From: a virus
Taxonomy: Duplodnaviria > Heunggongvirae > Uroviricota > Caudoviricetes
DNA: 16,532 nucleotides
Reading direction: 5' to 3' (one strand)
IMG/VR virus record: IMGVR_UViG_2541047434_000024
Below, in pieces: positions 9,001 through 12,000 of the stretch. Position numbers: made by a program. Position 1 is the first letter of the stretch. Every line of letters starts with the position of its first letter.

Positions 9001-12000
9001 AACAAACTCAGCCAGGTCCGGGGGCCACGTTTCACCCGCCCGGCAGCGGTCCATGCACTGACGGCACACCAGACGGATTTGCTGTTCAGTCATCGCACCA
9101 ATCTGGGCAATCCAGAGCTTCGAAGGTGCGGCCCCGTTCTTCTGAGTCCAGCGGTTCGAATACACCTCCCCCATGAGCTCCCACAGCTTCCAGGCCGTTT
9201 CCGTTGCTGATAAATCCGTTGTCACGTTCCCACTGTTCGCGTGCAGCCCGGATTTCCTGAACTGCCCGTGATGCCGTGCCACCTGATGCTGCATGGCTTC
9301 CCCCCTTGCTGACTGGTTTTACCTGTGCCCTGACGTGCTGCACGTGGCGGGCAAATTTCTGCTCCCACTGAACCTGCGTGAAAACCTTCCCCTCCGCCAT
9401 CCAGTAATCCCGGAATGCGGCAAGCTCAGCAGGTGTAAATTCCGGCTCAGGCAGAGCCATACCCCACACTGCTGCCCGTTGTCGAAAATCCGGCGACGGC
9501 TGCCAGACAGTAGTCATCGAAAATTTCCCGATCGGTTCGCTCAGGCCGTCCAGGTATTCAGGTTCGGCTGTCTGCAACGGCGCACCATTCGACTCACTGG
9601 TCGGAATACTCTCGCGCGCGTTATGTGTGGGGTTTAATTCTGTATCTGTATCTTTATCTGTATCTTTATCTGTATCTTTATCTGTCGTGACTTGTCGTGA
9701 CAGATGCGTGACACGTCGTGACTCATCGTGACAATCAGCATTATGTTTCCGCAGCTTTTCCCGCTCCCGCTGCGCTCTCTTGCGCTCTGCCGGGGATTTT
9801 GCCGTTTGCGAAACGTTACCATTGTCCTCTTTCAGCACCTGACGTTTTTCCCATCCGGAAATAAGGTCACCATCCAGAACCCGCCCCTGCATTGCATGCA
9901 AAATTGAATCAATTACGTCTTCCGTCACATCAAGCGCACTTGCTAAATCTTCCGTCGTGACATCAATGTGACCACGTAGTGACACGCCGTGACATGTCGT
10001 GACATTTCGTGACGCGCTCACCAGAAGATGGATATACACTGCCATCACTGTTGCGATTGGCTGTCCTGATACCCTGGCAATCGTTCGCCACTTGGGGTCA
10101 TTTGGCATGTCATGCCACAATCTGAGCCAGGCATTAGCCATACTCACCTCTTCTGATACCGAACTTTACCCTCGAACATCCGGAAGAAATCCGGCATGAA
10201 TATTGTTGGTCAATGCACGACAACAGCATTACCAGGCTGACCCCCACTGTTAGTCAGGGTGCCCCAGGCGATCGCCGCTGCGACAAAATCATCCACATCT
10301 TTCACCAGCCGATCCCTCCGTTCGACGATCTCACGGTAATATTCAGAGCTGTGACTGCGCATACGGGCCACCAGCAGAGGCGGCATTGCCTTTTCGATCG
10401 CCGGTAACAGAGCCTGCATTTTTTCAACTGCATCAGGGGTGTCTTTCTCTATCCAGCGGAAAATTTTCTGGGTATTGCGAGCCAGGGCTTCCGGATGGCT
10501 GTCGTCGTACAGTTCAGGAAACGTCATACCCAACTCAAAATAAGCCTGGGTTATTCCAGCTGCCGGAACTTTTTCGCCATCAGGACGCGCCCAGGCATTC
10601 ATCGCCATGCGGATGTGTTCATGCTTGATTTTCATGAATCCCCCCTTGGTTAGAAGGCGGATTATGATCAGAATCGGGAATGACAACCGTCGGTATGTGT
10701 AACTCATATTTGAGCGCCCCGGCAGTGACTGGCCTGAATTAGCAACGCCCATTTCCACGGAACGTCTTCCCCCCACATGCTGACTGTGGTTTTTGACGTT
10801 CCTAGAGCGGCGGCTGTTTTAACAACTCCGCCAAAATAGCCTAATACTTCTGATTTTTTCATGAGTCGCTCCATAAAACTGAACGCCAAAAGTTTAATAA
10901 TCAAAACCAAAGAAAGTCAAGAAACAAAACCATCTGTGTTTTAAAATCAAAACATGAACAAGCAAACAATATCTGAACGCATAACCCAACGTATGCATGC
11001 GCTAAACTTGAAAGGCAAAGACCTTGTCAATGCCACTGGCGCATCAAAAGGCTCCGTAAGTCAATGGATGAACGGTGGAGGAGCGCCGTCCTCGCGTTAC
11101 ATAAGTTCACTGGCAAAGATATTGAAAGTAAACGAAAATTGGCTTCTTAATGGAGGAGAGTTAAATACAGGTGATTCGCTTGATCTATCTTTACCGCCGA
11201 TAAAAACGGTTCCGCTACTATCACTTCAGCAGGCAGCAAGCTGGAGTGATTATATGAAAAATTCCTCAATAACCTCTTGTGTGCAGCTTGTCGGAGAAAT
11301 CCCGGCCAATACCTTTGCTGTTGTTCTAGAGAGTGACAGTATGTCGACATCTGGTGGTGGAGTTTCCATCCCAAATGGTTCAACAGTTTTTGTTGATCCC
11401 GATCGAATCGTACAACCAGGAAATATTGTCCTTGCCTTACCCAAAGGGACCACAACGCCTGTCATTCGCAAACTGGAGATAGAAGGGCCGGATATTCTTT
11501 TAGTCCCCACGAATCCTCGCTACCCTTCAATTATGCTGGATGATCTATCTTGCATATTGGGAGTATGCTTTAAAATTCAACAAGATATTTAACCAACCTC
11601 ATCTATTTGATTAACTGTATGCCATCGTAGTGATGGCGTAACAGCTGCCTGCTTAAAATGTTTTGATAAAAAAACATTGACCTTAAATGTTCGCTTTTCT
11701 AAACTTCATTCATTCCCTCACCCCGCCCCACAGAATGCAGGGCAATACTTCGAGTTACCAGGCAGTGGTCAGGGGTTAAGTAGCCAGCCCGAGGCGTAAG
11801 AACATGACGGCAGGGTTCAACTTTAATAACTATGCAGCAGGTTTTTGTTCCGCTACCCCGGCGTTAAGGGGAAATGAGGTCAACATGGATACGCTCAATC
11901 TTGGCAACAACGAATCTCTGGTATGTGGCGTGTTCCCCAACCAGGACGGTACGTTCACCGCGATGACGTATACCAAAAGCAAAACGTTTAAAACTGAAGC

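Follow-up and report, generated by a model that had tools for sequence, protein, structure and literature searches.

What is the purpose of eleven short, evenly spaced repeats lying in two groups within the coding sequence of a phage replication gene? The question is raised by a stretch of 16,532 nucleotides (IMG/VR virus record IMGVR_UViG_2541047434_000024, Caudoviricetes; the window in what follows) from a defective lambdoid prophage of Escherichia coli in an O157-type strain, covering its early region. The replication initiator gene of this prophage contains two arrays of GTCACG cores and, beside one of them, a 12-base-pair (bp) tandem repeat. The region is quite probably the replication origin of the prophage, lying within the gene whose product, the initiator, would read it. 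Four lines of sequence evidence argue for this reading: selection acting on the DNA itself, co-variation of the repeats with the N-terminal domain of the initiator, an adjacent A+T-rich tract of low stability and a layout resembling that of phage lambda.

The two arrays and selection on their DNA

The elements on which the argument turns are the following, with offsets counted within the gene.

9086..10141, minus strand: replication initiator gene, 351 residues, containing both arrays and the 12-bp repeat
9956..10013, minus strand: gene-proximal array, six GTCAC(G) cores, gene offsets +129 to +186
9923..9928, minus strand: lone inverted copy of the 5-bp core (coding-strand reading GTGACG); the last proximal iteron lies 33 bp upstream
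9686..9732, minus strand: gene-distal array, five GTCACG cores, gene offsets +410 to +456
9635..9685, minus strand: A+T-rich, purine-skewed tract with the 12-bp tandem repeat GATAAAGATACA in 3.9 copies, gene offsets +457 to +505

The original prediction described eleven (T)CGTGAC-type repeats at a spacing of 10-11 bp, in two arrays about 220 bp apart inside the gene, and the description is accurate. Five and six copies of the coding-strand core GTCACG (CGTGAC on the plus strand) recur every 10-11 bp, and the gap between the arrays is 223 bp. The coordinates given at that time also stand; as the gene lies on the minus strand, arrays 1 and 2 of that description are the gene-distal and the gene-proximal array, respectively. 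Read on the plus strand, the distal array has CGTGAC at 9686, 9696, 9707, 9717 and 9727 (spacing 10/11/10/10). The proximal array has it at 9956, 9988, 9998 and 10008, with degenerate TGTGAC at 9967 and AGTGAC at 9978 (spacing 11/11/10/10/10). Both arrays are alike in core, orientation and spacing, and the conserved unit is a 6-bp core per 10-11 bp with nearly unconstrained flanks.

In the window, CGTGAC occurs 20 times against 6.4 +/- 2.5 expected, a count reached in 0 of 200 shuffles, and TCGTGAC 11 times against 1.7 expected. Nine of the 20 copies belong to the two arrays and the remaining 11 are scattered singles. The inverted copy at 9923-9928 is invariant in ten E. coli homologs. At the protein level, the proximal array encodes residues 44-63 (SRNVTTCHGVSLRGHIDVTT), a beta-hairpin between helices 1 and 2 of a winged-helix domain, and the distal array encodes residues 137-152, inside a disordered linker.

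Such repeats might simply reflect a repeated peptide motif or slippage and have no function as DNA. The adjacent 12-bp repeat clearly grows and shrinks by slippage, and the proximal array has itself gained a 21-bp duplication: compared with phage Evi and with Aeromonas and Pseudomonas phages, it carries two extra iterons in the window (21 bp, 7 residues). The proximal copy number changes by whole iteron pairs, four versus six, and in the relatives with four copies the distal array lies at offsets +389 to +435. A period of 10-11 bp is, however, incompatible with a peptide repeat, and the cores are distributed over all three reading frames, yielding the peptides SR, VT and CH(D/G). Ten E. coli homologs (86-100% DNA identity) have all five distal hexamers unchanged, though their spacers of 4-5 nucleotides vary. 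In two E. coli lineages the single 11-bp spacer has shifted its position, so that SRRVTHLSR becomes SRICHDMSR with every hexamer intact: these frame-shifting insertions and deletions alter the peptide, yet keep the DNA motif.

Codon usage is equally telling. We compared 24 homologs from Enterobacterales, Aeromonas, Pseudomonas, Bordetella, Acidovorax, Chromobacterium and others, with a minimum N-terminal domain identity of 55% and a median of 73%, at conserved residues whose codons are 4- to 6-fold degenerate; a codon was counted as inside a core if its third base lay within it. Mean codon entropy was 0.19 bits inside the cores (n=10) versus an essentially saturated 1.82 bits outside (n=33; Mann-Whitney p=1e-6). 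The frozen codons belong to both arrays, S44, V47, T48, G57, H58, V61 and T62 in the proximal one and S148, V151 and T152 in the distal one; purifying selection thus acts on both at the DNA level. Cores in three frames and frozen synonymous sites rule out a protein-level repeat. Next to the distal array, GAT and AAA codons are moreover retained in hosts of 60-70% G+C, and we give the by-product explanation practically no credence. On these comparisons, the arrays are conserved DNA signals and not protein repeats. The original prediction had staked its case on the repeats being conserved among homologs; they are, synonymous sites included.

The initiator family and its repeats

If the arrays are signals in DNA, which protein would read them? 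An AlphaFold model of the initiator has a confident N-terminal winged-helix domain (about residues 1-100, with helices at 29-45, 63-70 and 74-84 and a wing at 85-96), followed by a basic helix (117-134) and a disordered linker (136-200) encoded by the distal array and the A+T-rich tract. The hairpin at residues 44-63 is modelled with low confidence (low predicted local distance difference test scores, pLDDT, at residues 50-54) and is the site of the 7-residue insertion of the window. The C-terminal part is a DnaT-like single-stranded DNA-binding domain (residues 207-275; PF17948 at 3e-17, 62.5 bits against a cut-off of 25). Foldseek aligned it with the DnaT structures 6aeq and 4ou6 at 54-58% identity and template modelling (TM) scores of 0.87-0.89. 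The resemblance to DnaT, or primosomal protein I, ends there: the N-terminal two thirds of the protein are unrelated, and the equivalog profile NF002770 of NCBIfam gave 94.5 bits against a cut-off of 201, with a match at profile positions 82-156 only.

The fold of the N-terminal domain appears most similar to that of the DnaD N-terminal domain and of an iteron-binding RepA_N initiator, and the domain matched no Pfam family even at E<=10. Membership in the Pfam families of lambda O (Phage_rep_O), Phage_rep_org_N and RepA_N (PF06970) was considered and rejected, none of them matching even at E<=10. Weak PHROG matches point to replisome-organizer and DnaD-like families (phrog_4880 at 3e-7, phrog_10469 at 5e-9), and 'phage replisome organizer' is the NCBI name for homologs of the window protein. 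The N-terminal domains of RepA_N proteins are DnaD-like and bind iterons, whereas the DnaD N-terminal domain itself does not bind DNA (PMC7145576). RepA_N initiators such as those of pSK41 and pTZ2162 and PLE RepA differ from the present case in their longer, semi-palindromic iterons around a poly-A tract, where we find 6-bp cores once per turn, and in their Pfam domain, which the window protein lacks. Judged by sequence and predicted fold, the initiator family appears to consist of a DnaD/RepA_N-like winged helix with exchangeable C-terminal domains, here a DnaT-like one, followed by a lambda-P-like loader.

The whole comparison covered about 100 related genes. With the N-terminal 153 residues as query, tblastn against phage genomes retrieved relatives down to 33% identity, and 79 loci came from a scan in which each species was represented by a single genome; a scan of viral contigs yielded close E. 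coli relatives only and served for copy numbers, diversity being drawn from the other two sources. One rule applied to all 80 loci: a zone counted as having an array if the best 5-mer occurred in it three times or more at helical spacing. Both arrays were found in 43 of the loci, at the same gene offsets; 24 had the distal array only, 7 the proximal only and 6 neither, and the distal array is thus found in 67. None of 1600 codon-shuffled controls had both. Two arrays rather than one had been thought unusual, which is right relative to lambda but not within this family, where it is the common state.

Arrays of GTCACG at the same two gene offsets are present in the E. coli phages Evi and 204576, in Aeromonas pAEv1818 and in Pseudomonas phi1 and PACT201. 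The two-array layout recurs in Ralstonia phage Firinga (38% identity), there with the core GCAACG, and the cores of other clades are CGAACG/GAACGC, GTAACG and GTGACG. These iteron classes form clades on a neighbour-joining tree of the N-terminal domains. The flanking genes vary among phages of the family, with P-like, DnaC-like or DnaB-like loaders and differing upstream regulators. As neighbours, C-terminal domains and loader partners are all swapped, the N-terminal domain is the only constant partner of the repeats.

One relative, Myoviridae sp. ctOK67 (locus L016, 2281-2440, 44% identity), has a distal array only, with AACGC cores. This array is followed by GAGACAGAGACAGATACAGATACAGATACAGATAAA, encoding ETETDTDTDTDK, a GATACA-type repeat as in the window, and the gene upstream of its initiator is annotated as a DnaA-like protein.

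The repeats might instead bind another factor, as centromere-like or packaging-like elements or as sites for a YdaT or Cro regulator. Type II partition centromeres, such as parC of plasmid R1, typically have two clusters of direct repeats in helical phase as well, and the binding protein is here predicted from sequence. On the other side, the repeats always lie within the initiator gene and change with the clade of its N-terminal domain while regulators and loaders are exchanged. The annotation of the locus has no partition or packaging genes next to the initiator, and the conserved A+T-rich tract and lambda-like offsets described below fit an origin. We regard another binding factor or a non-replicative role as very improbable. 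An RNA element is not indicated either, since an Rfam scan of the window gave no match within 9086-10147.

A probable origin in the manner of lambda, and the second array

The 12-bp repeat adjoins the distal array, downstream on the coding strand. Tandem Repeats Finder reports it on the plus strand as the unit TCTTTATCTGTA in 3.9 copies at 9639-9685 with 97% matches; on the coding strand it is GATAAAGATACA and encodes TDKDTDKDTDKDTD, that is, the (TDKD)n of the original prediction. By nearest-neighbour stability, just two 45-bp stretches of the 16.5-kb window are less stable than 9635-9680 (z=3.1), and of the ten least stable it alone lies inside a long open reading frame. Downstream of the distal array, an A+T- and purine-rich tract of the type (C/A)(T/C)AGATAAAGATAAAGA or AGAGAAGAGTAGATAAGAG is shared by nearly all relatives. 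It is present whatever the iteron class, and persists even in genes whose G+C content of 60-70% would lead one to expect GAC and AAG codons. Selection at the DNA level extends to the tract as well as to both arrays. Since no duplex in the gene is less stable, the tract is most likely the DNA-unwinding element of the origin. Inspection by eye, which was not systematic, gave poor matches, with at least 3 mismatches, to a DnaA box (TTATCCACA) or the integration host factor (IHF) consensus in or beside the tract.

The tract of the window consists of seven six-base GAYAMA units. In viral contigs, 75 close relatives have two (2 loci), three (67), four (1), five (4) or nine units (1), and in complete genomes the length of the initiator gene differs in 12-bp steps. 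Copy numbers of 2, 3, 4, 5, 7 or 9 across homologs bear out the length-variable linker that had been proposed. The repeat does encode that linker, but it is better read as an A+T-rich unwinding element whose coding of a linker is incidental. Its expansion or contraction would change the lengths of unwinding element and protein linker together.

The lambda origin consists of iterons and an A+T-rich tract in the middle of gene O; the iterons number four in lambda and six in Shiga toxin (Stx) phages (PMC7466680). In ori-lambda, including that of the Stx phages, and in the window alike, the origin lies mid-gene. Transcription passes first through the iterons and then through an A+T- and purine-rich tract, which encodes an interdomain linker rich in K, D, T and E. 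The lambda iterons occupy offsets +349 to +433 and the tract +435 to +480, compared with +410 to +456 and +457 to +505 here; the lambda tract, acacaaaagacactattacaaaagaaaaaagaaaagatta, encodes KDTITKEKRKD. In both systems, origin specificity resides in the N-terminal half and loader specificity in the C-terminal half, with the mosaic joint at the origin, and the loader encoded downstream in the window is a distant homolog of lambda P.

The likeness does not extend to sequence. Lambda O and the window initiator have no detectable similarity (BLASTP E=1.5), and no Phage_rep_O (PF04492) domain is found; the original label 'O-like' hence fits in role and layout but not in sequence. Lambda has four 18-bp iterons in a single array, whereas here 6-bp cores recur every 10-11 bp and a second array lies 223 bp upstream, in the region coding for the DNA-binding domain. 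Sets of four or more iterons of 18-19 bp with internal dyad symmetry, as defined for lambda O, do not occur here. The proposal of a lambda-style origin within the initiator gene is nevertheless supported by the conserved repeats, their co-variation with the N-terminal domain and an A+T tract at a near-lambda offset. Three features expected of iteron origins in general are also present: at least three helically phased direct repeats, DNA conservation with co-variation of the N-terminal domain, and an adjacent A+T-rich element.

Initiators of the DUF1376 type in E. coli share only the C-terminal half with the window, up to about 9657, inside the A+T tract. As only this half is shared, the N-terminal half with the iterons constitutes a specificity module, and the C-terminal half with the loader a recruitment module. 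In one such gene (locus L179, 1740-1900, E. coli 2003-3014), an N-terminal domain of the DUF1376/YdaU type gives way, at the A+T tract, to the C-terminal half and P gene known from the window. This gene retains AATAAAGATACAGAT, upstream of which it has repeats of its own, TGTTCAAAC, in two direct copies and one inverted. Its sequence suggests the same origin logic with a different specificity.

Phage SPP1 offers a further parallel: its oriL comprises direct repeats and an A+T-rich unwinding element within gene 38 (gp38), followed by loader and helicase genes (PMC6316719). Initiators of the gp38 type and the one described here have binding repeats (predicted in our case) and an unwinding element inside their own gene. 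The second set of sites in SPP1, oriR, is intergenic and about 13 kb away, compared with 223 bp and the same gene here. Phage_rep_org_N, which distinguishes the SPP1 system, is not detected in the window protein, and C-terminal domain and host range differ too.

How might such an origin work? After derepression, the early-right operon (the cro-like, ydaT/cII-like, initiator and P-like loader genes) would be transcribed. The DnaD/RepA_N-like winged-helix domain of the initiator would then bind the GTCACG cores, whose spacing of 10-11 bp places all sites on one face of the helix and could permit a cooperative array of bound units. The distal array at 9686-9732 abuts the GATAAAGATACA repeat at 9639-9685, which would melt. 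The C-terminal DnaT-like domain could hold the opened strand, tethered by the linker that the same DNA encodes, and initiator and lambda-P-like loader together would bring in the host DnaB.

Most likely, the lambda-style origin is formed by the distal array and the A+T tract, with the proximal array as a conserved auxiliary element. Its six sites would most likely provide a second landing pad, from which a looped or wrapped complex resembling the O-some could form with the distal array. The main alternative is autoregulation or titration. The origin would then comprise the distal array and A+T tract only, and the proximal array would be an operator or roadblock slowing transcription of the operon, or a means of titrating the initiator. 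An A+T-rich flank is found at the distal array only, and the distal array stands alone in 24 of the 80 loci, so that the proximal one is dispensable for the basic design. The proximal array also lies 129 nucleotides into the replication gene of the operon, and its copy number varies by whole iteron pairs. Against this, its cores, orientation and spacing are the same as those of the distal array, and its position is conserved in 43 of the 80 loci despite very different promoters and upstream genes. On balance, autoregulation or titration appears unlikely.

Two separate clusters of initiator repeats, only one of them beside the unwinding element, are found in P4 (ori and crr) and in oriC of Bacillus and Helicobacter, where DnaA-box clusters lie on either side of dnaA; the initiator probably bridges the two. 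Those initiators are unrelated and their clusters intergenic and at other distances, whereas both clusters are coding here, one of them encoding part of the presumed reader domain. The arrays might form an obligatorily bipartite origin, in which the initiator bridges or loops about 230 bp to melt the GATAAAGATACA tract; we hold this only tentatively, as a possible rather than a probable arrangement. Over the 43 loci with both arrays the gap has a median of 229 bp and, for its helical phasing, a Rayleigh R of 0.39, values that come mostly from close relatives and are confounded by phylogeny.

Several observations weigh against our preferred interpretation, a lambda-style origin with an auxiliary proximal array. 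That array is missing from the 24 distal-only relatives and has no A+T flank. The putative recognition helix, residues 74-84 (EDVIDSILHAM), is acidic, which leaves the DNA-contacting surface unclear. The searchable literature, subscription-only articles excluded, contains no report of initiator binding, melting or origin activity for the family. Finally, the prophage is defective, its cro-like gene being frameshifted and its cI-like, recE and int genes truncated, and the origin may thus be silent or fired only in trans.

The prophage and the wider meaning of the probable origin

In the chromosome of E. coli strain 272 (NZ_CP018239.1), one part is 100% identical to the window, and O157:H7 prophages are 98.9% identical to it across the initiator gene. 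The minus-strand gene order is cro-like, ydaT/cII-like, initiator, lambda-P-like loader and a DUF1627 gene. The neighbouring genes and other features, several of them named by the Prokaryotic Genome Annotation Pipeline (PGAP), are as follows.

8632..9093, minus strand: lambda-P-like helicase loader gene ('replication protein P' in PGAP; also by Pfam and PHROG)
10210..10635, minus strand: YdaT/CII-like gene, directly upstream of the initiator in the same early-right operon
10619-10862: cro-like gene, frameshifted according to PGAP
11254-11592, divergent: truncated cI-like/LexA-family repressor gene, 339 nucleotides versus 645 in relatives
13928-14729: recE-family gene, truncated
15154-15705: integrase (int) gene, truncated
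5839-6013 and 5689-5844, minus strand: hok/sok toxin-antitoxin locus (Rfam sok, 113.5 bits; Hok/Gef family protein in PGAP)
13236-13287 and 13462-13650, plus strand: DicF antisense small RNA (Rfam, 76.7 bits) upstream of dicB (by PGAP)
351-523, 1296-1369 and 1473-1545, minus strand: Rfam match to the small RNA STnc100 (102.7 bits) and two tRNA genes (tRNA-Arg and tRNA-Ile in PGAP)

The loader matches Pfam Phage_lambda_P (PF06992) at 1.3e-15, is assigned to PHROG 109 ('P-like helicase loader') and has 25% identity with lambda P (E 1e-6). Its start and the stop codon of the initiator share 8 nucleotides (9086-9093), an overlap that suggests translational coupling of the two genes. DicF and dicB constitute a Qin/Kim-like cell-division inhibition module. 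The STnc100 match and the tRNA-Arg and tRNA-Ile genes sit in the late-regulatory region of the prophage, and insertion sequence (IS) elements are found just outside the window.

The module of N-terminal domain and iterons (window 9630-10147) is present in 645 of 5426 complete E. coli genomes, about 12%. It reaches up to 4 copies per genome, with 3 in strain 272 and in many O157:H7 strains. Most close homologs in protein databases bear the annotation 'partial' and stem from short contigs whose ends fall within the initiator gene, which is consistent with assemblies breaking at a multi-copy prophage module.

An origin of iterons and an A+T tract inside the initiator gene is classical. In the literature searched, subscription-only articles not being covered, we found no description of this initiator family, of its iterons with 6-bp cores once per turn or of the conserved second array in the sequence coding for the DNA-binding domain. 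The searchable literature on Stx-phage replication likewise makes no mention of iterons, repeats or DnaT for the non-lambda replication types. Sequence evidence alone has located a probable origin for a module carried by about an eighth of the complete E. coli genomes examined.

The initiator family is widespread, extending to Enterobacterales, Pseudomonas, Bordetella, Ralstonia, sphingomonads and others. With at least five iteron specificities in a conserved two-array layout, it offers natural specificity swaps ready for experiments. The arrays also provide a clean case of overlapping protein and DNA codes, in which a cis-acting signal freezes synonymous sites. Should the bipartite arrangement hold true, a change of specificity would have to rewrite part of the sequence of the reader itself, one array lying in the codons of the winged-helix domain that would read it; this would make a self-referential unit of protein-DNA co-evolution, common to prophages across Proteobacteria.

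On other aspects, co-resident prophages that share an iteron specificity could cross-activate one another or compete; if the origin is indeed bipartite, those of identical specificity in O157 strains could fire each other's origins. Such cross-activation or competition bears on prophage induction and on the mobilisation of defective prophages in enterohaemorrhagic E. coli.

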